A stretch of DNA of 64,000 bases from contig NC_090285.1 of the NCBI RefSeq assembly GCF_037392515.1, positions 70,781,515 to 70,845,514 of the forward strand, given 5' to 3'. Positions within the stretch are counted from its first letter, which is position 1. Every line of letters starts with the position of its first letter. Source of the stretch: Haliotis asinina (Eukaryota). Of the stretch, positions 6,230 to 56,275 are shown in pieces. The notes under the pieces are model-generated. The model did no database searches. It saw nothing but the letters and a program-made list of their open reading frames with translations, and was not told the DNA's origin. The translations under genes were made by a program, and so were the position numbers.

Positions 6230-7780
6230 ATCACGAACCTTGGATGTGTATGATCCATCATCCAGGTATTCACCCACTTGCCCGAGCTATTCACCGACTT
6301 CACCCAGGTACTCTCCAACTTCACCCAGCTACTCACCAACGTCACCTAGGTACTCACCAACTATGCCCAGGTACTCTCCAACTTCACCTAGGTATTCACC
6401 GACTATGCCCAGGTACTCTCCGACTTCACCTAGGTATTCACCGACTATGCCCAGGTACTCTCCGACTTCACCCAGGTACTCACCAACTTCACATAGGTAC
6501 TCACTGATTGTGCCAAGGCACTCAGTGACTTCACCCATCTACTCACTGACTTCAGCCAGGTACTCACCAACATCACCAGCTACTCGCTGACTACTCCCAT
6601 CTACTTAAGACTTCACTGAGGTACTCACCCTGGTACTTACCAGTTTCAGCCAGCTACTCATTGACTTTACCCAGGTACTCACTGACTTCACTGAGGCACA
6701 CACTGACTCCACCTAGTTACTCAATGATGTCATTCAGGCCAGTTACTGACAGACTACTCCCAGGTACACACTGTCTTCACCCATTTAGTCACTGACTGCA
6801 CCCAGCTACTTACCCACATCAACCAGCTACTCACCCAGTTACTCACCAACCACACAGATACTCACTGATTTTGCCCATTTACGCACAGACTATTCCAAGG
6901 TACTCACTGACCTCAACCTGCTGCACTTCAACCTGCCACTCACAGACTACTTCGAGGTACACACCGACCTCAACCAGCTACACTTCAACCTGCCACTCAC
7001 AGACTACTTCGAGGTACACACCGACCTCAACCAGCTACACTTCAACCTGCCACTCACAGACTATTCCAAGGTACACACCGACCTCAACCAGCTACACTTC
7101 AACCTGCCACTCACAGACTACTACCAGGTACACACTGACTTCACCCAGCTACTCACAGACTTCAACTTGCTACTCACAGACCACATCCAAGTACTTACTG
7201 CAGCCTTCACCCAGTTAGTCACTGACTTTAACCAGGTGCTCACGACTACTCCCATGTACTCACTGACTTCACGCAACAACTATCTGACTATTCCAAGCTA
7301 CTTATTGACTTCATCCTGCCACTCACTGACTTCACCCAGGTACACACTGCCTTCACCCAGGTACTCACTGACTATAACCAGGTGCTCACAGACTACTCCC
7401 AGGTACTGACTTCATCCAGGTACACGCTGCCTTCACCCAGGTACTCACTGACTATAACCAGGTGCTTACAGACTACTCCCAGGTACTGACTTCACCCAGG
7501 TACACGCTGCCTTCACCCAGGTACTCACTGACTATAACCAGGTGCTCACAGACTACTACCAGGTACTGACTTCACCCAGGTACACGCTGCCTTCACCCAG
7601 GTACACACTGACTATAACCAGGTGCTCACAGACTACTACCAGGTACTGACTTCACCCAGGTACACGCTGCCTTCACCCAGGTACTCACTGACTATAACCA
7701 GGTGCTCACAGACTACTACCAGGTACTGACTTCACCCAGGTACTTACTGACATCAATGAGGTATTCACCGACTACTCAAA
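6230..7780. repeat. Satellite: 21-bp units (6250-6560) degrading into an ~80-bp higher-order repeat (7290-7750)
   Basis: cccaggtactctccgacttca / cctaggtattcaccgactatg units. ggtgctcacagactact... recurs every 80 bp. Confidence 0.9.
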
Positions 7781-10472: not shown

Positions 10473-10887
10473 GAGTCATCGGTCAGCTGACACAAGGACG
10501 TCTCCGGAGAGAGACTCGCCGCACTTACATGTGTTTAAAAGAAGCAGCAGGATGTTTCCAATGAAAGAGAAGGAGGATTCAAAATCACGTGAATTCCGAT
10601 TCAAAATTGCCCAGAGTGAGGAAGAAACTGAATGCCTGGCTCTTTTAGGAGAAAAAAAATGTAAGAAAAAACAATGTAAGAAAAAGGCCGCACTAGGAGA
10701 GTTATCTGAAACTAGACCAAAGGATTCGAGTGATGAACCCTTGTCAGGCATTGTGCAGGATAAGAATGCAGTGCATACAGTGGTGTTGCCAGTGATGGAG
10801 TTGGGTGTCGGCCTGCCATGTATACGGGAGTACAGAGTGGAACTGAATGCTGCTCGCATATCAACACTTCTTACCCTACAACAAAAG
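10473..10887 (+). CDS. Candidate internal coding exon (138 codons) of an unknown gene
   Basis: Open frame bounded by the acceptor ttccttgtcactccacag|G and the donor AAG|gtaggt. Lys/Glu/Ser-rich product, no family recognised. Confidence 0.3.
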
Positions 10888-11059
10888 GTAGGTCTACAAG
10901 CTGCATGTCATCCAAATCTGTAATGAAAAGTAAGCAATATGTCCTTAACAGAAAGGTTCTAGAAGGAACAGCTGACAGCACAGGACTTTTCTCTAGAATC
11001 CTAGGTACCTGTATTGGAATGTTCAGGTGGGTTCATACAGTACAAGCCTCACAAAACTC

Positions 11060-11330
11060 CACAACAATGTGACTCGGGGTAGGGGAAAGATTAAATTTCT
11101 GACTAAACTAAACAACAACGTGACTCAGGGGTAGGGGAAAGATTAAATTTCTGACAAAACTCCACAACAACATGACTTGGGGTAGGGGAAAGATTAAATC
11201 TGTAGCAAAACTCCACAACAATGTGACTTGGGGTAGAAGAAAGATTAAATTTCTGACAAAACTCCACAACAACGTGACTCGAGGGTAGGGGAAAGATTAA
11301 ATTTCCGACAAAACTCTTTTCAAAGACTCT
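11060..11330. repeat. ~60-bp minisatellite, ~5 copies
   Basis: gtgactcggggtaggggaaagattaaatttctgac(a/t)aaactccacaacaa repeated. Confidence 0.85.
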
Positions 11331-12700: not shown

Positions 12701-15019
12701 CTTTGCATTTAATATGTGAGTAATGATGAAAAAATTATATAATTTACAATCTTAAAGGGGCACTGATGCGGAGCAATTTCCCTGGACTGGTTGTTCCTTT
12801 TGTTATTGTTTTTCTCCCATGAGTACCCGGATGATAGCCCAGAATTTGTGACTGGTTCGTTACCTCTGCTGTGCAGCTCGTATGCGCAGTTGAGAGTTTA
12901 ATTATAGACAAATCAACTAAGGTGAAGTCATTTTTACTTCATTACAAATGTATTATTACAACAAATGAAGGTTAATCATCTGCCAGTGGTAGAAATGGTA
13001 AAAAACTATTAGGACGGAAAAATAACGAAGCCAATGTACGTCTTTACATTTTGTCTCATAACCTTAATTAGTTTATTGTCATATGTGTATGATTTTGAAA
13101 ATTAGTAAAAGAACACACGGTCTGCTTATACTTGTAGTAAATTTCTAACATGACTGTAACATTTAAACATTGTATAGACTGCCAGTGTGGATCCTATTTC
13201 ACACATGCCCTATGCACGTGTTTTCTGTCATACAGATTCTGCTGAATGCTACAACAAATAAAACAAAATGCAACTAATGAATTTAAGACAGACTAATGTT
13301 TTAGCAACAATGTCAGGCCACTACCTTGTTCTGGAATGTATCCATCAATATCCATATAAAAGAACGATATTGCATTCATCTGCAGCTGGTAAATAATCCT
13401 GCTCTATGTCATGTGTCTTACAACAGTCTAATTTGTGAAAAAGTGACACATCGTTTCAGGTCTTTCAGATTGGTGAAAACCTGATAAACCTCTGATTGGT
13501 CTCTCAAGATAGCACACCTGGCAACTAATTGTATGATGTCAGCCATTCTAGGTGATTTAGTTAACCAATAATGACCAATCAATCAATCAACGCAATGGTG
13601 GTTAATTCTTTGAAAGGAGGATGTTTTTACACTCGCACTTTACAACAGGGTGTTGTCAGTAGATTAGTACATCTACACACACTGCCTTTTGACGAATCCT
13701 CTGTAGAAGATAAAAGTAATTAATCAATCAGTATGTTATCGGTTAATCCTTTGATAGATATTTGTGTTTGTAACTCACCAAATAAACCCTCTTGCATCAC
13801 TTACATGGACATATTACATAACATACAATACATTTGCCACTACAAACCTTAATTTGTAATGTTGAGTATTTACTCCAGACAGGAGAAATGCTAAATGGGA
13901 ACCTTTGTTGGGTAATGTTAAGTGGTGTTACCACTAATTATACCTGTTAGAAATTCAAATTCATTCACTTACCATCAAGTGAATGATGACAAATAACACG
14001 TGTAGGTTTATACCATCAAACGCGAGTTACAGCAAGGACGATGTAATCTCTGTGTTGCATGCAACCTGAAAACACTTATGGACAAAAACTTTTGAGGATA
14101 CCAGCAGAACTTCCTTGTTACATAAGAAATACAAACAGACATTTGCTGTGTACTTGAGTAAATACGTGTAATCAATTTTTTTTGACATAGGAACATTTTC
14201 AGATTTCTCTACCAATGGCAAAGTCGTGTTTAGTTTACGAATTTAAATAAATTAATTGTGTGTTTTTATTTTCATAAATAATTTACCAAAATGTACGTAT
14301 GATTTTTGCTATGACAACTGGACCAACCCTCAAAACTAAATATAAAGCTTGGCAATCTTTCAGACTTACATGAAACAAATGGCTTGCTACATGTATGAAA
14401 ATATCATATTTTTACATGACATGATTAAATATTGAGATAAAAAAAACACCGAAATAGGATCAAACTGGATCAGTCACTATACCATCCAGGCATCAGAAAA
14501 ACACTACACTGCTGGGATATTTTGTTACAATCAGACAAGGAATACCATGGATATTTTGAAATAATGGCATATGATGGGCATCCGGCCTCCTGACTGTTTA
14601 GGGTGAAACATTTTGCTAATGTGGACAGGAGCCCAGTCCCTTTGTCCATCACAGTCAAGGGAGCAGGTGCTGACCAATTTGCAGCTTGGTTTCGTAATTA
14701 GACTGTTGGTGAGAAACATTATTTGCTCCACATCAGTGCCCTTTTAAATGCTCCTGTTGAAGCAGGTTTTGGATAATGGGCATTTATTTCTCTTCCGTAT
14801 GCATCCTGTCTCAGCTCCCTTGTGTGACCTGTTTGCATCTCTGATAATAGAACTGATGATTCCTTTAAGAATTGTTTTGACTGAACCTTGCATGCTACTT
14901 TACCATGGAGACATGTAAGTGTAGTATGGTTTCAGCTGTGTTCATTATGGCTTACTTATTCAGTACCACTATAGATTTTGCAGAAGGATTTTTCACTTCA
15001 GTGTTATTTGCTGTTATAG

Positions 15020-19449: not shown

Positions 19450-19450
<1 letters not shown>

Positions 19451-19494
<44 letters not shown>

Positions 19495-20174: not shown

Positions 20175-20790
20175 ACAGTGTCAGCTCACCAGCTACATCA
20201 TGACATCTATAGTGTCAGCTCACCAGCTACATCATGACATCTATCGTGTCAGCTCACCAGCTACATCATGGCATCTATAGTGTCAGCTCACCAGCTACAT
20301 CATGACATCTATCGTGTCAGCTCATTAGCTACATCATGGCATCTATAGTGTCAGCTCACCAGCTACATCATGACATCTATCGTGTCAGCTCATTAGCTAC
20401 ATCATGACATCTATAGTGTCAGCTCACTAGCTACATCATGGCATCTATAGTGTCAGCTCATTAGCTACATCATGGCATCTATAGTGTCAGCTCATTAGCT
20501 ACATCATGGCATCTATAGTGTCAGCTCATTAGCTACATCATGACATCTATAGTGTCAGCTCACTAGCTACATCATGGCATCTATAGTGTCAGCTCACTAG
20601 CTACATCATGGCATCTATAGTGTCAGCTCATTAGCTACATCATGGCATCTATAGTGTCAGCTCATTAGCTACATCATGGCATCTACATTGTCAGTTTACT
20701 AGCTACATCATGGCATCTACATTGTCAGTTTACTAGCTACATCATGGCAGACACACAGTGTCAACTCACTAGCTGCATCATGGCAGACAA
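20175..20790. repeat. 34-bp minisatellite, ~18 copies (intronic)
   Basis: gtgtcagctcaccagctacatcatgacatctata with ca/tt and ga/gc variants. Confidence 0.9.
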
Positions 20791-20805
20791 ACAGTGTCAA
20801 CTCAC

Positions 20806-20956
20806 CTGATCAATCTCAGTCTGGTTCATCTCACCACTCAACATGGCAGCCAGGGCCTCAAACTTCCCATCACACACCGATACAAGCTCTGGGAGAGTCT
20901 CAATTGGTCCTCGCAGCTCTGGGAAACCCTTTTGTCTGGCACCTCCCCCTCGGGGC
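20806..20956 (-). CDS. ASCC3: Brr2-family helicase exon
   Basis: (R)PRGGGARQKGFPELRGPIETLPELVSVCDGKFEALAAMLSGEMNQTEIDQ. Acceptor tgtttag|G, donor CAG|gtgagt. Confidence 0.6.
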
Positions 20957-20989
20957 CTAAACACAAACAAACCAAATAAGAGACATTAA

Positions 20990-21350
20990 ACTATGACATT
21001 GTACGTACCTGACACATGGAATGATGGGAATGTACGTACCTGACACATGGAATGATGGGAATGTACGTACCTGACACATGGAATGATGGGAATGTACGTA
21101 CCTGACACATGCAATGATGGGAATGTACGTACCTGACACATGCAATGATGGGAATGTACGTACCTGACACATGGAATGATGGGAATGTACGTACCTGACA
21201 CATGGAATGATGGGAATGTACGTACCTGACACATGGACTGATGGGAATGTACATACCTGACACATGCAATGATGGGAATGTACGTACCTGACACATGCAA
21301 TGATGGGAATGTACGTACCTGACACATGCAATGATGGGAATGTACGTACC
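20990..21350. repeat. 31-bp minisatellite, ~12 copies, starting exactly at the 5' splice site of exon 21350-21501
   Basis: Unit on the gene strand is catgtgtcaggtacgtacattcccatcattc. Every copy carries CAG|GTACGTAC. Confidence 0.9.
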
Positions 21351-21501
21351 TGAAACAGTAAACATGGTAGGGCATGATGTTAGGGAGAGTGAGAAGAGTG
21401 GAGTCCTCCAGCCATCGACCTTGCACCACCATCTGTATCAACTGAATCACCCGTAGAGATGTTGCCAGCCAGCCCTGGTCTGCCGACACATCCAACATGG
21501 C
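21350..21501 (-). CDS. ASCC3: Brr2-family helicase exon
   Basis: AMLDVSADQGWLATSLRVIQLIQMVVQGRWLEDSTLLTLPNIMPYHVYCF vs Brr2 [42 protein letters not shown]. Donor TTCAG|gtacgtac. Confidence 0.7.
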
Positions 21502-21895
21502 CTGAAGTGAGGTGAAACAAATGTAACTGTTAAGTGAACAACCTAAAATACATTGCAAACAAAGAACACTTTGGCCGTCAAGGGCGGAGACCAAATTTCA
21601 CAACCCAAACAATGTGTCATTGGGCATATATAGTTTCAACACTGACCTTGCAACAATGGTATAGACACACATGTGAAAGACTGATCATACACTGAAGTTG
21701 ACAGAAGACTTACTAAATTCAAATCTATGAAGGCTGCAGGAATGTGGGCACAGTCAGAAATTTGCAGCAATAATGACTCCATGACATTGCATATGACGTA
21801 CAAAAAAAGGACAGAAACACGGGACAGAGTTGTCTCCCTTGTACTGTCAGAGGAACATCTGAAACAGTTGTTGAGAGGAGGATAAGGGGACCCAC

Positions 21896-22064: not shown

Positions 22065-22081
22065 CTATCACAACATAGAGT

Positions 22082-22120
22082 GAGTGAGTGATAGAGTGAT
22101 TGAGTGAGTGAGTGAGTGAG
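22082..22120. repeat. (GAGT)n microsatellite
   Basis: gagtgagtgagtgagtgagtgagtgagt. Confidence 0.9.
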
Positions 22121-22518
22121 TGAGTGAGTTTTATTATCCCCTCCACACGTTTAGTGCGAAGCAGGGGATATAGTACTAGGTTCCGTAAGATTTACAGTAG
22201 TCAGCGAGATATTTCAACAACCATTCCCAGAATTTTCTTCATATTCAACACCAAGCTTATTCTTGGGAAGGTGCAACAAGAATGCTCACCTTGTCACACG
22301 ATATCTCAAGAACAGCTGACTGGGTATTCTTATTTGTTACCAGCCTTCACCTTGGAAAGGCGCATTTAACTTCATCTTGAACTACTACCTGCATTTTCGT
22401 TACTTTTTAAGTTTAATTTGACAATAATTTACGGTGTGGGACTACATCACCTTAGTGATAATGTTTTTATTTCAATTTAAACATCATGAAATTCTGGAGT
22501 CCATGCCAGCCACCTACC

Positions 22519-25099: not shown

Positions 25100-26000
25100 T
25101 GCAATACAACATACACTGATGAGTACATCATTCATCATCCAGTACAACATATGGCAGTCAATACAACTTACACTGATGAGTACATCATTCATCATCCAGT
25201 ACAACATATGGCAGTCAATACAACATACACTGATGAGTATATCATTCATCATCCAGTACAACATATGGCAGTCAATACAACATACACTGATGAGTACATC
25301 ATTCATCATCCAGTACAACATATGGCAGTCAATACAACATACACTGATGAGTACACCATTCCTCATCCAGAACAACATATGGCAGTCAATACAACATACA
25401 CTGATGAGGATATCATTCATCATCCAGTACAACATATGGCAGTCAATACAACATACACTGATGAGTACATCATTCATCATCCAGTACAACATATGGCAGT
25501 CAATACAACATACACTGATGAGTACACCATTCCTCATCCAGAACAACATATGGCAGTCAATACAACATACACTGATGAGGATATCATTCATCATCCAGTA
25601 CAACATATGGCAGTCAATACAACATACACTGATGAGTACACCATTCCTCATCCAGAACAACATATGGCAGTCAATACAACATACACTGATGAGGATATCA
25701 TTCATCATCCAGTACAACATATGGCAGTCAATACAATATACACTGATGAGTACATCATTCATCATCCAGTACAACATATGGCAGTCAATACAACATACAC
25801 TGATGAGTACACCATTCATCATCCAGTACAACATATGGCAGTCAATACAACATACACTGATGAGTACACCATTCCTCATCCAGAACAACATATGGCAGTC
25901 AATACAACATACACTGATGAGGATATCATTCATCATCCAGAACAACATATGGCAGTCAATACAACATACACTGATGAGTACATCATTCATCATCCAGTAC
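25100..26000. repeat. 57-bp minisatellite, ~15 copies (intronic; explains long ORFs on both strands)
   Basis: atggcagtcaatacaacatacactgatgagtacatcattcatcatccagtacaacat repeated. Confidence 0.95.
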
Positions 26001-26239
26001 AACATTAAGCATCTCATCTCTGGACATGGGAGTACTCTCCTTCTAATAAATTATTCCAGTGGTTATAGACAGCAAAGAACATTGGACCAAAGTCCTCAGA
26101 TTTGTTGAAACATGTTCACTCCAGATGAACAAATGAAATCCTGCATTAACTCTTAGAACCATGGGGTCTATAGGTTGTATTATGGTTGACTAATTGTTGT
26201 TTGAGTGTTTAATATCAGTGGTATGATGAAGTCAGAAGT

Positions 26240-27930
26240 TGTGTCTAACTAGACAAAATGGATATATTCTCACTGAAGTTGTGTGTAACTAGATAACATG
26301 GATATATTCTCACTGAAGTTGTGTGTAACTAGATAACATGGATATATTCTCACTGAAGTTGTGTCTAACAAGACAACATGGATATATTCTCACTGAAGTT
26401 GTGTCTAACAAGATAACATGGATATATTCTCACTGAAGGTGTGTCTAACAAGTAAACATGGATATATTCTCACTGAAGGTGTGTCTAACAAGATAACATG
26501 GATATATTCTCACTGAAGGTGTGTCTAACAAGACAACATGGATATATTCTCACTGAAGTTGTGTCTAACAAGATAACATGGATATATTCTCACTGAAGTT
26601 GTGTCTAACAAGATAACATGGATATATTCTCACTGAAGGTGTGTCTAACAAGATAACATGGATATATTCTCACTGAAGGTGTGTCTGACAAGATAACATG
26701 TTTATATTCTCACTGAAGGTGTGTGTAACAAGATAACATGGATATATTCTCACTGAAGGTGTGTCTAACAAGATAACAATGGATATATTCTCACTGAAGG
26801 TGTGTCTAACAAGACAACATGGATATATTCTCACTGAAGGTGTGTCTAACAAGATAACATGGATATATTCTCACTGAAGTTGTGTGTAACTAGATAACAG
26901 GGATATATTCTCACTGAAGGTGTGTGTAACTAGAAAACATGGATATATTCTCACTGAAGGTGTGTCTAACAAGATAACATGGATATATTCTCACTGAAGG
27001 TGTGTCTAACAAGATAACATGTTTATATTCTCACTGAAGTTGTGTGTAACTAGATAACATGGATATATTCTCACTGAAGGTGTGTGTAACTAGATAACAT
27101 GGATATATTCTCACTGAAGGTGTGTCTAACAAGATAACATGGATATATTCTCACTGAAGGTGTGTCTAACAAGATAACATGGATATATTCTCACTGAAGG
27201 TGTGTCTAACAAGATAACATGGATATATTCTCACTGAAGGTGTGTCTAACAAGATAACATGGATATATTCTCACTGAAGGTGTGTCTAACAAGATAACAT
27301 GGATATATTCTCACTGAAGGTGTGTCTGACAAGATAACATATATATATTCTCACTGAAGGTGTGTCTAACAAGATAACATGGATATATTCTCACTGAAGT
27401 TGTGTGTAACTAGATAACAGGGATATTTTCTCACTGAAGGTGTGTCTAACAAGATAACATGTTTATATTCCCACTGAAGTGTGTAACAAGATAACATGGA
27501 TATATTCTCACTGAAGGTGTGTGTAACAAGATAACATGGATATATTCTCACTGAAGTTGTGTGTAACTAGATAACATGGATATATTCTCACTGAAGGTGT
27601 GTGTAACTAGATAACATGGATATATTCTCACTGAAGGTGTGTCTAACAAGATAACATGGATATATTCTCACTGAAGGTGTGTCTAACAAGATAACATGGA
27701 TATATTCTCACTGAAGGTGTGTCTGACAAGATAACATGGATATATTCTCACTGAAGGTGTGTCTGACAAGATAACATATATATATTCTCACTGAAGGTGT
27801 GTCTAACAAGATAACATGGATATATTCTCACTGAAGGTGTGTGTAACTAGATAACAGGGATATTTTCTCACTGAAGGTGTGTCTAACAAGATAACATGGA
27901 TATATTCCCGCTTAAACTGTGTCTAACTAC
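26240..27930. repeat. 40-bp minisatellite, ~42 copies
   Basis: gatatattctcactgaag(g/t)tgtgt(c/g)taac(a/t)agataacatg repeated. Confidence 0.95.
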
Positions 27931-28356
27931 ATAACATGGGTATATTCCCTATGAAATTAGACGTTAGGGAAATACAAGGGAGAGACAATGGAAACACAAT
28001 GGAGACACAATGGGAACAAAAATGGGGGAAAAAACGCAGGTGTAAATAAGTCAGTTTCAAACAACTACAATTTTCATAATGATGCAAGAACAGTTGTGGC
28101 ACAAGGTAGTTTACGTCTGAGCGAAATAAAACCTATTGTAACTGCTTTCTGTTGCCTGTGTGTTTCAAGAATAGTTTCAATTCCTAACAGTCAAACCCGA
28201 CGGAGATATCTTAGAGTGCAATGTTCCTGTTGTACTTTCCTGATGTACTCTGTACATAGTTTCTCAAAATATGATACAATTTTTTGCAATTGTTAAGGCC
28301 TGGGCCAGACAGTGTGTATGATGGACAGAAGCCATCTGCGCTATATCACTGTCTCG

Positions 28357-43933: not shown

Positions 43934-44719
43934 TTGTTACGTCACATAAGAAGTTTGAACATCAGTGAGATTAAACCCACAAATAGAGGCTGTAGAGGTG
44001 GCAAACGTAAACAAAAAGCATTATGGTCTGCTCGTGAGATTTCAAGTGAGTACCCTTATGATCATACATCACAACCGGTTAATGACAGGACATCACTTGA
44101 TAGTCTGAAGATAAGCGTATGGAATGCTCAGTCTGCTAGAAATAAAACTGTTGAAATTGCTGACTACATCATAGAATCAAACATTGACATTCTTTTCTTA
44201 ACTGAAACTTGGTTGTCAGTAATCGGAGATGAATCAAAATGCTCTGAGATCACACCAATTGGTTACAAACTTCACCATGTACACCGACTTAGTGGTAGAG
44301 GCGGAGGTATAGCTATGATATATAAGAAGGACATGGTTATCAGTTTCTCTAAACTGACTGATAGATTCGTTACTTTTGAGTACGTGGTGGCTGTCATCAG
44401 CTTTGGGAAAATGACATTGAAGACTGTCTGTCTATATAGACCCCCACCCTCAAAAGGAAATAATCTGAAAAACTCAGATTTTCATACAGAGTTTTCATCA
44501 CTGTGTGATTATTTAGATGGCAAGACTGGAACCTACCTAATTCTGGGAGACTTCAATGTCCAGTTTGACAAAAAAGAAAATAAACTGACAAAAAACGTGT
44601 GTGCAGTTCTTGACTCTCATGCCTTAAAGCAACATGTTGCTGAGCCCACACACAAATCTGGCCACGTTCTTGACTGGATACGTAGTACGTGGTGGCTGTC
44701 ATCAGCTTTGGGAAAATGA
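43934..44719 (+). CDS. LINE apurinic/apyrimidinic-type endonuclease (EEP) domain
   Basis: ISVWNAQSARNKTVEIADYIIESNIDILFLTETWL ... LILGDFNV. Confidence 0.8.
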   Translation: MLRHIRSLNISEIKPTNRGCRGGKRKQKALWSAREISSEYPYDHTSQPVNDRTSLDSLKISVWNAQSARNKTVEIADYIIESNIDILFLTETWLSVIGDESKCSEITPIGYKLHHVHRLSGRGGGIAMIYKKDMVISFSKLTDRFVTFEYVVAVISFGKMTLKTVCLYRPPPSKGNNLKNSDFHTEFSSLCDYLDGKTGTYLILGDFNVQFDKKENKLTKNVCAVLDSHALKQHVAEPTHKSGHVLDWIRSTWWLSSALGK

Positions 44720-45276
44720 CATTGAAGACTGTCTGTCTATATAGACCCCCACCCTCAAAAGGAAATAATCTGAAAAACTCAGATTATTCAGCATTTCATA
44801 AATGATCTGAAGGCATCAACACTCCTTCGTTGTCCTCCTGATGATGTTAATGAACAGGCAGCATTGTTTGATAAAACATTGCTTGACCTACTGAATAAGC
44901 ATGCACCAATCAAAATCAAACTAATTTGTCCTCAACATACAGCACCTTGGTACTGTTCAGAGGTCAGAAACACAAAGAGAAAGAGGCGTGCTGCGGAGTG
45001 ATGCTGGCGTAAGTCACGACTTGAAGTCCACCGCCAGATGTACAACTCTGCACGGAATGAAGTAAACAGATGTATCAGAAAGGCTAGATCAGATTACATC
45101 ATTCAAGAAATTAACACTAACAGTGATATTCCTAAGCTCTTGTTTTCCACGATTAACAAGTTGCTCGGCAAGAAGGCGGATGTCACTTTGCCACATGGTA
45201 CTGATACAACTCTGGCAACAACTTTAGTACGTATTTCTCAGAGAAAATATCAAAGATACGCCATGGTCTGGGGTCC

Positions 45277-46876
45277 GTGTGTGTTACTGGTTCTTATATA
45301 AACTACATGGGAACCAAATTTCCTTCTTTCACCCCAGTCTCGGAACTGCAATTAAAGAGACTAATGACTTCATCTAAACCAACATCTTACTCGCTAGACC
45401 CACTACCCACAAAATTCCTCTTTGGATTAGTGGACGTGCTTCTTCCCATGATAACAAAGATTGTACACACCAGCTTGGCCACTGGAAAGGTGCCATCATG
45501 CTTCAAAGAGGCAGTTATCAAGCCACAAATCAAGAAACCAGCTCTTGACACTCAGACCTTGAGCAACTACCACCCGGTATACAACCTGACATTCATGTCA
45601 AAGATTCTAGAAAAAGTTGTTAAAGCACAGCTCGTGGAACATCTTCAAAAGTCTAATCTGATGGACAACTATCAGTCCGCATATAGAGTGGCACACAGCA
45701 CTGAGACGGCTCTAAACTGTGTTATGAATAACATAAAAATGTCAGTTGATTCTGGAGACATTGCCATGTTTGTCCTGTTAGATTTATCATCCGCTTTCGA
45801 CACCATCGACCACGCAATGCTGCTGAGTCGTTTGGAACATGACTATGGCTTGAACGGCACTGTCCTGGAGTGGTGTTCATCATACCTTACAGATAGGAAA
45901 CAGTTTGTCCAAATAAATAAAGCTATGTCCTGCCTGTGGTGTCCCTCAAGGGTCCGTGCTAGGTCCGATCCTTTTCACCATGTACACAAGACCTCTGGGA
46001 CACTTGATATCAGAGAAGCATGTGGCTCATCATTTCTATGCCGATGACTCGCAGCTGGTAGACAGTTTCAGACCCATCTTAGCAAGTCAGATGGAATCTT
46101 TGCATAACATGGAAAGTTGTCTCAACATTGTCAAATCCTGGATGTCAACCAACCTGCTTAAATCAAATGACGAAAAGACAGAGGCCATCATCATCGCTCC
46201 ACCTTCTAGACAGCAAAAATCCCGGCTAACCCACTTGCAAATTGGACAGTCTCTCGTACCTTTCTCGCCTCATGTAAAAAATCTTATTGACTCTTCTCTT
46301 ACTACGGATAAGCAAGTGGACCATCTCTGCGAAGTATGTCACTTTCATTTGAGAAACATAGGATCAATCCGTCATCTTCTTACAGCTGAAACCACAGCCA
46401 CTCTGGCTGGATCACTCATACTTTCTCGTCTGGATTACTGTAACAGCTTACTCATGGGAATATCAGGAGATCAGCTGAACAGACTGCAGAGGATACAGAA
46501 CAGGGCTGCCCGTATAATAACCAGGACTAAGCTCCATTCTCACATCTCCCCTGCTCTAAAGTCACTGCACTGGCTCAGGATCCGTGAAAGGATTGACTTT
46601 AAGATCCTTTCTTTAGTCTACATGTCTTTACAAAACACTGCCCCTGTCTATCTTCAGGACATGTTTGCCCACTACAAGCCCTCTAGAAATCTCCGATCAG
46701 CTGACCAACTGCTCTTGACTGAACCAGTATATAAACTGAAATCTATTGGGGCTCGATCCTTCTCACATGCAGCTGCCTCATTATGGAACTCTCTCCCATT
46801 TAACCTCAAGAGTGCACCTACGCTATCTTTGTTTAAATCTGGACTAAAAACGTATCTCTTCCAACGCTACCACTAA
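45277..46876 (+). CDS. LINE reverse transcriptase (two overlapping frames)
   Basis: FVLLDLSSAFDTIDHAMLLSRL, GVPQGSVLGPILFTMY (shifted frame), HFYADDSQL, LLKSNDEKTEAIII. Confidence 0.85.
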
Positions 46877-48609: not shown

Positions 48610-48840
48610 TTAATCATTGAGGCAGAATGGTGTGTCAGGAAACATTGTAACCATCCAGATGAATGGTGTGTCAGGTAACATTGTAACCATCCAGATGAAT
48701 GGTGTGTCAGGTAACATTGTAACCATCCAGATGAATGGTGTTTCAGGTAACATTGTAACTATCCAGATGAATGGTGTTTCAGGTAACACTGTAACCATCC
48801 AGATGAATGGTGTGTCAGGTAACACTCTCACCATCTGGAT
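48610..48840. repeat. 33-bp minisatellite, 7 copies
   Basis: gaatggtgtgtcaggtaacattgtaaccatccagat repeated. Confidence 0.9.
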
Positions 48841-49209
48841 GAATGGTCATGTAAACATGGGCTATACTGGAGACTGGTCAAGGGTATATATTTCAACAAA
48901 AACAAACACTGACTGCTCCTGTACATGCTGTGAATTTATCTGGTGCAGTAGGTTGTAGACTTCTTCCGTGAACACTGACTGCCTGGCAAAGAGATGTCAC
49001 ATGTTAGTATGTTCCTTGTCTGATTTGTGTGAGAGTCTCCTTGAGAGATCAGGAAAAGACAGAAACTGGTCTGATAACCACCTTCATAACTCACCACACC
49101 GAGATAACTGTACCAAAACAATTCAACTGAGTGAGTGACAATATAGACCAACAGAGTAAAAATCTTATCAAGTGAAAGTAAGGTGAGTGAGGGATTGTGT
49201 GAACAGATG

Positions 49210-55909: not shown

Positions 55910-56045
55910 ACTAAGCAATATTCCAGCAATATCATGGTGGAGGGACACCAGAAATGGGCTATACACATTGCACCCTTGTGGGTAATCGAACTTAGGTCTT
56001 TGTCATGACAAGCAGACACTTAACCACTAGGCTACCCAACAGCCC
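55910..56045 (-). mobile_element. SINE copy (reverse orientation)
   Basis: Reverse complement reads gggggctgttgggtagcctagtggttaagtgtctgcttgtcatgacaaagacc...gtgtatagcccatttctggtgtccctccaccatgatattgctggaatatt. Confidence 0.75.
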
Positions 56046-56109
56046 CCGACAGTCAGGCAGAGGCTTGACTTGCTTAACTGCCTGTCCTTAAAACCCAATG
56101 CCTTTAACT

Positions 56110-56275
56110 GTGGCTTACAATAGGAAACACAGGATTACCCAGGTGAGACTCTAATATTAATACAGGATTACCCAGGTGAGACTCAAATATTAATACAGGA
56201 TTACCCAGGTGAGACTCAAATATTAATACAGGATTACCCAGGTGAGACTCAAATATTAATAGGCTGAAGTATTGC
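56110..56275. repeat. ~35-bp minisatellite, ~5 copies
   Basis: ggattacccaggtgagactcaaatattaatacag repeated. Confidence 0.9.

Follow-up and report, generated by a model that had tools for sequence, protein, structure and literature searches.

How does a gene come to carry an intron whose donor site is re-created eleven times in a row, and which of these donors would the spliceosome be expected to use? This question is raised by a 64,000-nucleotide stretch of Haliotis asinina DNA (hereafter the window), in which a 31-bp minisatellite begins at the end of an exon on the minus strand. An earlier sequence-only reading had proposed that the array was seeded across a 5′ splice site that it has perpetuated ever since, making it a ready source of cryptic splicing or NMD isoforms. 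Our analysis indicates that the exon is part of ASCC3, and that the array is very probably a lineage-specific, tolerated and recently homogenised by-product of minisatellite formation, of the type known as a mirage, in which the first donor is the one in use. From the arguments set out below, we infer that it is near-neutral and not a regulatory device. Throughout, a slash marks a splice boundary or its equivalent in a repeat unit.

An ASCC3 exon and the array that adjoins it

The exon from which the array starts, here called Ee, encodes part of the C-terminal Sec63 unit of the ASCC3 helicase (Pfam Sec63, E=1.4e-25), and both of its limits had been placed exactly by the sequence-only reading, as judged from the Pfam match and from colinear homology. 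It is one of nine colinear ASCC3 exons that tblastn with full-length ASCC3-like proteins recovers on the minus strand, from 25098 to 18265. Exon Ee follows an acceptor ttcag/GCC at 21502/21501, encodes AMLDVSADQGWLATSLRVIQLIQMVVQGRWLEDSTLLTLPNIMPYHVYCF (AMLDVSADQGW...YHVYCF) together with the two leading bases of an Arg codon, and ends in TGTTTCAG/GTACGTAC. The named homologues of the encoded product are ASCC3, and the closest of them are molluscan, from Mytilus (72%), Candidula (63%) and Bulinus (59%). In a collection of 5.8 billion proteins, no protein or ORF of the source species was found, the best single-exon identity being 85%, and no further upstream ASCC3 exons were found between 25100 and 64000 of the window.

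The position of the authentic donor is indicated by homology. Joining Ee to the next exon, Ef, gives the reading YHVYCF/RPRGG, which is colinear with homologues and is obtained from the donor at 21350 only. The alignment across this junction with P0040, P0041 and P0042 is ungapped, homologues reading YHVSCL/RSMGG, YHTYFF/RIQEK and YHLYCF/RTDGG, and the conceptually spliced product of 434 aa aligns end to end with homologues of 323-2172 aa. The sequence-only reading depended on the array abutting a genuine exon, and this is what we find: the first unit of the array spans the exon/intron junction, being composed of the final 8 nt of the exon and the initial 23 nt of the intron.

TRF describes one array with a period of 31, 11.5 copies, 97% matches and a score of 660, in keeping with the approximately 12 copies of a 31-bp unit originally noticed. 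The unit string reported with that count has 30 letters and omits a G/C-variable position; the full unit on the minus strand is TGTGTCAG/GTACGTACATTCCCATCATT(G/C)CA. Searched against the window, the 30-nt string gives 11 matches at no more than 3 mismatches, versus 0 expected from 100 shuffles. When the array is written out in register, its first line is the exon sequence CCCTACCATGTTTACTGTTTCAG/GTACGTAC and lines 2-12 read ATTCCCATCATT(G/C)CATGTGTCAG/GTACGTAC, with one unit carrying GTATGT and a second substitution. Every unit does re-create a donor, as had been claimed: CAG/GTAYGTAC occurs at 12 sites in the 31-nt register of the minus strand, the first of which is the exon end, while sites 2-12 follow at exact 31-nt spacing down to 21009. 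The G-type and C-type variants of the unit are grouped in blocks, which in this one haplotype are consistent with the usual trace of unequal exchange and fit, but do not prove, turnover of the array. With 11 full units amounting to 341 nt, the array takes up 87% of the intron. The 52-nt intron tail holds the acceptor, a pyrimidine tract and two branch-like motifs, TTAAT and CTTAT, which precede the 3′ splice site by 29 nt and 20 nt, respectively.

Table 1. Coordinates of the ASCC3 features, repeats and mobile elements of the window, and of donor-spanning arrays in other ASCC3 loci (positions in the latter refer to each locus).
Feature	Positions	Strand	Remarks
ASCC3 exon Ee, 152 nt	21350-21501	-	Pfam Sec63; tblastn with full-length ASCC3-like proteins; ungapped alignment across junction
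Inferred authentic 5′ splice site CAG/GTACGT	21344-21352	-	last exon base 21350, GT 21349-21348, phase 2
Intron Ee-Ef, 393 nt	21349-20957	-	phase 2
31-bp minisatellite	21000-21357	-	TRF
Eleven pseudo-donors CAG/GTACGT (one GTATGT)	21001-21321	-	donor scores and register; G of CAG at 21319, 21288, 21257, 21226, 21195, 21164, 21133, 21102, 21071, 21040, 21009
3′ end of intron, 52 nt	20957-21008	-	GTACGTACA (truncated 12th unit) then AATGTCATAGTTTAATGTCTCTTATTTGGTTTGTTTGTGTTTAG; otherwise unique sequence
ASCC3 exon Ef, 151 nt, encodes (R)PRGGGARQKGFPELRGPIETLPELVSVCDGKFEALAAMLSGEMNQTEIDQ	20806-20956	-	next exon; homology
Second minisatellite, 34-36 bp, ~19 units	20177-20805	-	register print-out; TRF gives 20177-20785
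57-bp x 16 array	25102-26005	-	ends 3 nt before acceptor of exon Ea
(ACTC)13	22078-22129	read on -	ends 13 nt before acceptor of exon Ed
(ATG)15	19450-19494	read on -	ends 12 nt before acceptor of exon Eg
40-bp x 43 minisatellite	26235-27947		upstream of exon Ea; largest in window
Polinton/Maverick-like element	28490-~42300	mostly -	upstream of exon Ea
LINE-type retrotransposon remnant	43934-46876	+	AP-endonuclease domain
Field of 21, 42, 57 and 80-bp repeats	6258-7773		donor-like motif on both strands
Array with strong donor-like motif	48625-48847
33-bp array with strong donor-like motif	56129-56261
Putative tRNA-derived SINE	55950-56050		by eye only
Bulinus truncatus L003 (GCA_021962125.1)	10684-11114		47 bp x 9.2; 26 nt exon + 21 nt intron; orthologous Ee-Ef junction
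Muraenolepis orangiensis L009 (GCA_027704905.1)	14365-14466		20 bp x 5.1; ACCTCCACCTGTTCAG/GTAA; orthologous Ee-Ef junction
Candidula unifasciata L005	6081-6711		45 bp x 14
Tegillarca L010	743-1191		67 bp x 6.7
Mytilus edulis L004	15362-19989		~80 bp; at least 42 CAG/GTAAGT copies
L001	3088-3508 and 7640-7838		147 bp and 102 bp
L007	6137-8448		156 bp x 14.8

Origin of the array and choice among its donors

Each unit repeats the end of the exon as well as the donor. The exonic TGTTTCAG and the corresponding repeat sequence TGTGTCAG are identical at 7 of 8 nucleotides, a match with a chance of ~4e-4 by our own calculation, which upholds the proposal that the array arose by duplication across the exon/intron junction. 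The same match argues against a chance neighbour of the donor without any exon sequence, whether a common minisatellite of introns or a repeat carried by a transposon. Such an accident would not be strange in itself, since the window is dense in minisatellites (71 TRF rows) and the ancestral intron was ~83 nt, so that any array within it must fall near a splice site. However, a pattern search of the 64 kb of the window and of 8 related loci found the 31-bp unit nowhere but in the array itself, and the array consensuses of the window are not significantly enriched for donors (5 of 27 score at least 8 bits versus 2.1 expected). Because this enrichment is not significant, the perfect donor seen here is not a general property of the window's repeats, and we rejected a window-wide tendency of arrays toward donor motifs. 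An origin from a transposon, an introner or a dispersed family was likewise rejected, as no copy lies outside the array in the window or the 8 related loci. Taken together, chance adjacency is scarcely credible.

The host intron and the array appear to differ greatly in age. The position of the Ee-Ef intron is conserved in six other animal loci (L001, L002, L003 from Bulinus, L004 from Mytilus, L005 from Candidula and L009 from Muraenolepis), and the 31-bp unit is found in none of these six. In L001, the intron at that position (...TGTCTCAG/gtaatg...caacag/GCC) is 765 nt long and contains no array. Judging from these sequence comparisons, the intron is old, while the 31-bp array is apparently lineage-specific and young. 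The Paralvinella locus (L006) is intronless over this region and was uninformative. A further clue to the order of events is provided by the single mismatch between exon and repeat. All 11 intronic copies have a G where the exon has a T, and this T lies within a Phe codon, TTC, which is the same codon in Mytilus. Because the 11 copies share the G and the exon keeps the T, the array probably expanded from a second copy that was no longer constrained.

These features are accommodated by a simple series of events. A 31-bp segment straddling the junction, with 8 nt from the exon and 23 nt from the intron, would have been duplicated in tandem, after which the second copy, free of coding constraint, would have acquired its G in place of T. 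The downstream copies may then have been amplified to 11.5 units and made uniform, by unequal exchange or by slippage during replication, with the intron lengthening from ~83 nt to 393 nt. One more rearrangement has to be assumed, because the present 52-nt tail cannot yield the unit by a single simple duplication.

The resulting donors are hardly distinguishable from one another. On an approximate donor matrix each of the 12 sites scores ~9.9 bits (9.6 for the GTATGT copy), which falls within the range of 5.8-12.9 bits for other donors of the same gene, and 10 of the 11 pseudo-donors are identical to the authentic 9-mer. By analogy with the systems described below, the spliceosome would take the most upstream of these near-identical donors, and the other 11 would be removed with the intron. 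The array may also contain a safety net against mistakes. Every unit boundary, in all 12 units, is AG/GT and is acceptor-like as well as donor-like; the units run GT...CAG, and a retained run of units, again bounded by splice-like signals, could be excised by another round of splicing. At 31 nt, a unit is too short for an intron on its own. Pyrimidines make up a fraction of 0.65-0.71 of the sequence preceding each CAG, versus 0.53-0.88 at the real acceptors of the gene, and the unit contains no yTnAy branch motif.

Two further properties of these sites were considered and set aside. A role as a recursive splice site (ratchet point) was rejected, as the intron is only 393 nt long and the array is missing at orthologous loci; the pyrimidine tract and AG abutting each donor are comparable with the real acceptors, but the unit lacks yTnAy. 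Structural masking of the pseudo-donors was dropped as well. The donor core, GUACGUAC, is perfectly palindromic, and adjacent donors pair in the predicted fold, but the 461-nt region exceeds shuffled sequence in stability by no significant margin (z of -1.77, with 5 of 100 shuffles folding as well).

If the pseudo-donors were in real use, in line with the potential for cryptic splicing seen by the sequence-only reading, they would generate a ladder of isoforms. That reading had stated that use of any downstream donor would shift the frame, since 31 is not a multiple of 3. This holds for 8 of the 11 copies: donors 2, 3, 5, 6, 8, 9, 11 and 12 (the authentic donor being 1) would shift the frame and lead to a premature stop within exon Ef, making the products NMD-prone. 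It fails for donors 4, 7 and 10, which would add 93, 186 and 279 nt. The array contains no stop codon in any frame and the added length keeps the frame, so that use of these three donors would result in in-frame insertions of 31, 62 and 93 aa. Real use of the copies is made conceivable by their scores, which are as high as that of the real donor, by the absence of stops and by the location of the junction in a stretch whose length differs among homologues (gaps of 3-14 residues), where an insertion might be tolerated. There is also precedent, as the two nearest pseudo-sites are used in addition to the authentic site in IFI6 and CBS, although only the authentic site is used in LMNB2 and PDGFA (PMC1557585). 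The balance of published cases is against such use. In F7 the most upstream donor alone is used, though all of the donors are functional (PMC1557585), and in amphioxus mirages normal splicing is reportedly undisturbed and the most upstream donor is reportedly used (PMC3087553, PMC3902484). In addition, ASCC3 is a single conserved helicase gene in which heavy mis-splicing would be costly, and the annotated Bulinus and Candidula proteins, whose genes have comparable arrays, lack an insertion, although these are gene models and provide no proof. We therefore regard appreciable use of the pseudo-donors as decidedly improbable.

Use of the first donor is itself not beyond challenge. The introns concerned are short (~290-2000 nt), so that splice-site pairing over the intron could be to the advantage of downstream donors. 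In certain experiments with duplicated donors, the one closest to the acceptor is preferred. The F7 paper itself records that, when a different group had earlier duplicated a donor, the results were opposite to those in favour of scanning (PMC1557585).

Donor-spanning arrays in the window and in other ASCC3 loci

The 31-bp array has a neighbour of a similar kind. Immediately downstream of exon Ef lies a minisatellite of 34-36 bp, the register of which starts exactly at the donor GT (20805) of that exon, CAG/GTGAGT (CAG/GTGAGTTGACACTG...). The GT is kept in 11 of its downstream units and mutated to AT in 7, which suggests that this may be a similar array of greater age and now in decay. A comparison of TGATGCAG with the exonic TGATCAG suggests, though weakly, that the unit took over some sequence from the exon.

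Other repeats of the window lie close to ASCC3 acceptors. The last unit of the 57-bp array upstream of exon Ea ends in ...GTATTG and is followed by CAG/TTACTAC; because the array reaches to 3 nt from the acceptor, the branch and pyrimidine region of exon Ea consists wholly of repeat sequence. Two simple repeats, (ACTC)13 and (ATG)15, end shortly before the acceptors of exons Ed and Eg (Table 1). The consensus of the large 40-bp array contains AAG/GTGTGT on the plus strand, antisense to ASCC3. The field of repeats at 6258-7773 is complex, is built on CCAGGTACTCAC / GGTGAGTACCTGG, and has no gene identified within it. The arrays at 48625-48847 and 56129-56261 were set aside, as neither has a recognisable exon upstream; the putative SINE lies just upstream of the second. 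Among mobile elements, the large Polinton/Maverick-like element includes an rve integrase (Pfam E=1.7e-10), an adjacent ORF in which the B-family polymerase motifs KLMNNSVFGKT and YTDTDS were recognised by eye, and several further long ORFs without a Pfam match. In the LINE remnant, the AP-endonuclease domain is matched at E=4.8e-10, and the match to a reverse transcriptase (E=7.4e-5, 23.0 bits) falls short of the Pfam gathering cut-off of 29.6.

Outside the window, arrays that repeat an exon end and its donor proved to be common at ASCC3. At least one is present in 8 of 10 ASCC3 loci (the window, L001, L003, L004, L005, L007, L009 and L010). Those of the snail Bulinus and the gadiform fish Muraenolepis lie at the orthologous Ee-Ef junction and differ from the 31-bp unit in both length and sequence; judging from these units, the window, Bulinus and Muraenolepis carry what appear to be three independent arrays at the same junction. 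The further exon-end and donor arrays have units of 45-156 bp in 2 to more than 40 copies. Two other duplications were noted. In L001 (4328-4652), a repeat contains an acceptor and the 5′ part of an exon but lies ~800 nt upstream of the real exon, and in L008 (6863-7347), the whole of ASCC3 exon Eb is triplicated in tandem with its acceptor, its donor and ~30 nt of intron (168 bp x 2.9).

We compared the frequency of donor-spanning arrays with random seeding in seven loci, where unit-length seeds were placed uniformly on the gene spans after removal of extra copies, and wholly exonic placements were excluded. Donor-spanning arrays number 8 of all 47, where 2.6 are expected (P=0.0035), 7 of the 46 left when the window array, as the ascertained one, is omitted (2.6 expected, P=0.012) and, again without it, 4 of the 10 arrays with 5 or more copies (0.8 expected, P=0.005), figures that apply to one gene, with thresholds set after seeing the data and exon ends taken from BLAST alignments, and with several loci reached via partial gene models whose breaks may coincide with such arrays. 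Strictly acceptor-spanning arrays number 0 in the same seven loci, versus 2.7 expected. This asymmetry fits a rule by which the first site met is used and which filters the duplications that survive, because an extra downstream donor is harmless and an extra upstream acceptor is not.

The excess hints at something beyond neutrality, subject to ascertainment bias, and raises the possibility that the arrays are functional. In that case, the reiterated donors would recruit extra U1 snRNP beside the real donor, which would strengthen exon definition or suppress premature cleavage, and copy number would tune ASCC3 output. The state of the donors agrees with this, as all 11 pseudo-donors of the 31-bp array are intact, whereas 7 of ~18 in the neighbouring older array have decayed to AT. 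However, recent homogenisation, evident in the 97% identity among units, explains intact donors equally well, the 31-bp array is missing from every relative examined and is thus unconserved, and the enrichment test is post hoc, covers a single gene and is open to ascertainment bias. Repeat number in IVS7 of human F7 has been linked to factor VII levels, which counts in favour of a functional element. Against this, the neighbouring intron sequence of F7 reportedly contains no autonomous regulating element (PMC1557585). On balance, a regulatory role for the array is improbable, and a near-neutral by-product remains our preferred reading.

Donor-spanning arrays also appear to interfere with gene annotation. 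Public gene models split ASCC3 in both L009 (5001-14384 and 15386-19384) and L004 (10001-13985 and 14011-21837), and in Muraenolepis a model stops within the donor-spanning array. Arrays of this kind may disrupt automatic annotation systematically and bias surveys that start from fragment models, and they are worth flagging in annotation. When spliced Bulinus transcripts crossing the array of that species were sought, none was found.

The recurrence across ASCC3 orthologues, in this one gene, suggests that arrays of this class are far commoner than the literature implies. We put forward, tentatively and as a possibility that is still doubtful, that donor-spanning mirage arrays arise time and again, and directionally, in animal genomes rich in minisatellites and are not rare curiosities. 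If this is true genome-wide, surviving tandem duplications would record a first-site-met rule for donor choice or, alternatively, would point to a bias of mutation toward starting minisatellites at 5′ splice sites. The arrays would then be abundant natural experiments on the choice among identical splice sites, and the GT...CAG units of the window would let mis-chosen donors be corrected by re-splicing.

Comparison with known junction-spanning arrays

Arrays that span a splice junction and repeat its donor have already been described as a class, of which the Haliotis ASCC3 array is a new example and not a new kind. It shares the three structural hallmarks of the mirage and F7 arrays, namely a head-to-tail unit of ~10-160 bp, a first monomer that spans the boundary and a reiterated splice site. 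No mollusc report of junction-spanning arrays was met in our literature searches, which were not directed at molluscs.

The closest relative is IVS7 of human F7, which contains 5-9 copies of a 37-bp monomer, in the first of which 4 bp come from the exon and 33 bp from the intron (PMC1557585). Minisatellites of the F7 type are also present in CBS IVS13, IFI6 (6-16) intron 2, LMNB2 and PDGFA intron 4 (Borensztajn et al. 2006, PMC1557585). Like F7, the ASCC3 array has a boundary-spanning first monomer (8+23, compared with 4+33) and an authentic donor followed by identical pseudo-donors; the units are similar in size, and some of the pseudo-sites preserve the frame in both. The CBS minisatellite also has a unit of 31 bp. 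The ASCC3 array differs from that of F7 in its gene and lineage, which is probably that of a mollusc, in its stronger donor (CAG/GTACGT compared with UGG/gugggu), in its 12 copies, in its occupation of most of a short intron and in having units bounded by AG/GT. Whereas silent pseudo-sites and copy-number polymorphism have been shown for F7, the ASCC3 array is known from one sequence alone.

The amphioxus mirages are found in Adh3, TnC, globins and PGBD5, span exon-intron boundaries and have units of 10-160 bp (PMC3087553, PMC3902484). As in these, the ASCC3 repeat consists of a piece of exon and its splice site, its 31-bp unit is within their range, the genome is that of a minisatellite-rich invertebrate and concerted evolution is apparent within the cluster. 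Unlike the ASCC3 loci, where strict junction-spanning is confined to the donor side, amphioxus has mirages at 3′ as well as 5′ boundaries. Amphioxus mirages have been shown to be unstable in length, both somatically and between alleles, while the ASCC3 array represents one haplotype.

Two other systems resemble the array in part. In the repeats of UBC and VCX3A, an AGGT site can be spliced either as a donor or as an acceptor (Duan et al. 2024, PMC10809524), and expansions of AGGT-containing repeats have been argued to be less harmful on the grounds that extra units can be spliced out (PMC10809524). The ASCC3 array likewise has AG/GT at each unit boundary and a pyrimidine-rich run upstream, which makes its sites candidates for dual use. 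In UBC and VCX3A, however, the two intron ends occupy corresponding points of the repeat, and the units encode protein and have lengths divisible by 3, whereas in ASCC3 the acceptor lies in the unique 52-nt tail and the 31-nt unit is non-coding. The 393-nt intron corresponds to 12.7 units, which is not the whole multiple characteristic of the UBC type. In the Rogers model, a new intron appears when a stretch of exon containing AGGT is duplicated in tandem (Hellsten et al. 2011, PMC3265369). The ASCC3 array is similar in that splice signals are carried within a tandem duplication whose extra copy the spliceosome would remove, but different in that no new intron is created and an ancient one is merely lengthened.

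Measured against these systems, the ASCC3 array adds a clean invertebrate example to a small and mostly forgotten class, which provides the best natural model so far for how the spliceosome chooses among a row of identical donors. The rule that the most upstream donor wins was established in mammalian cells, and ASCC3 presents it with 12 equal, acceptor-like donors placed 31 nt apart in a short intron.
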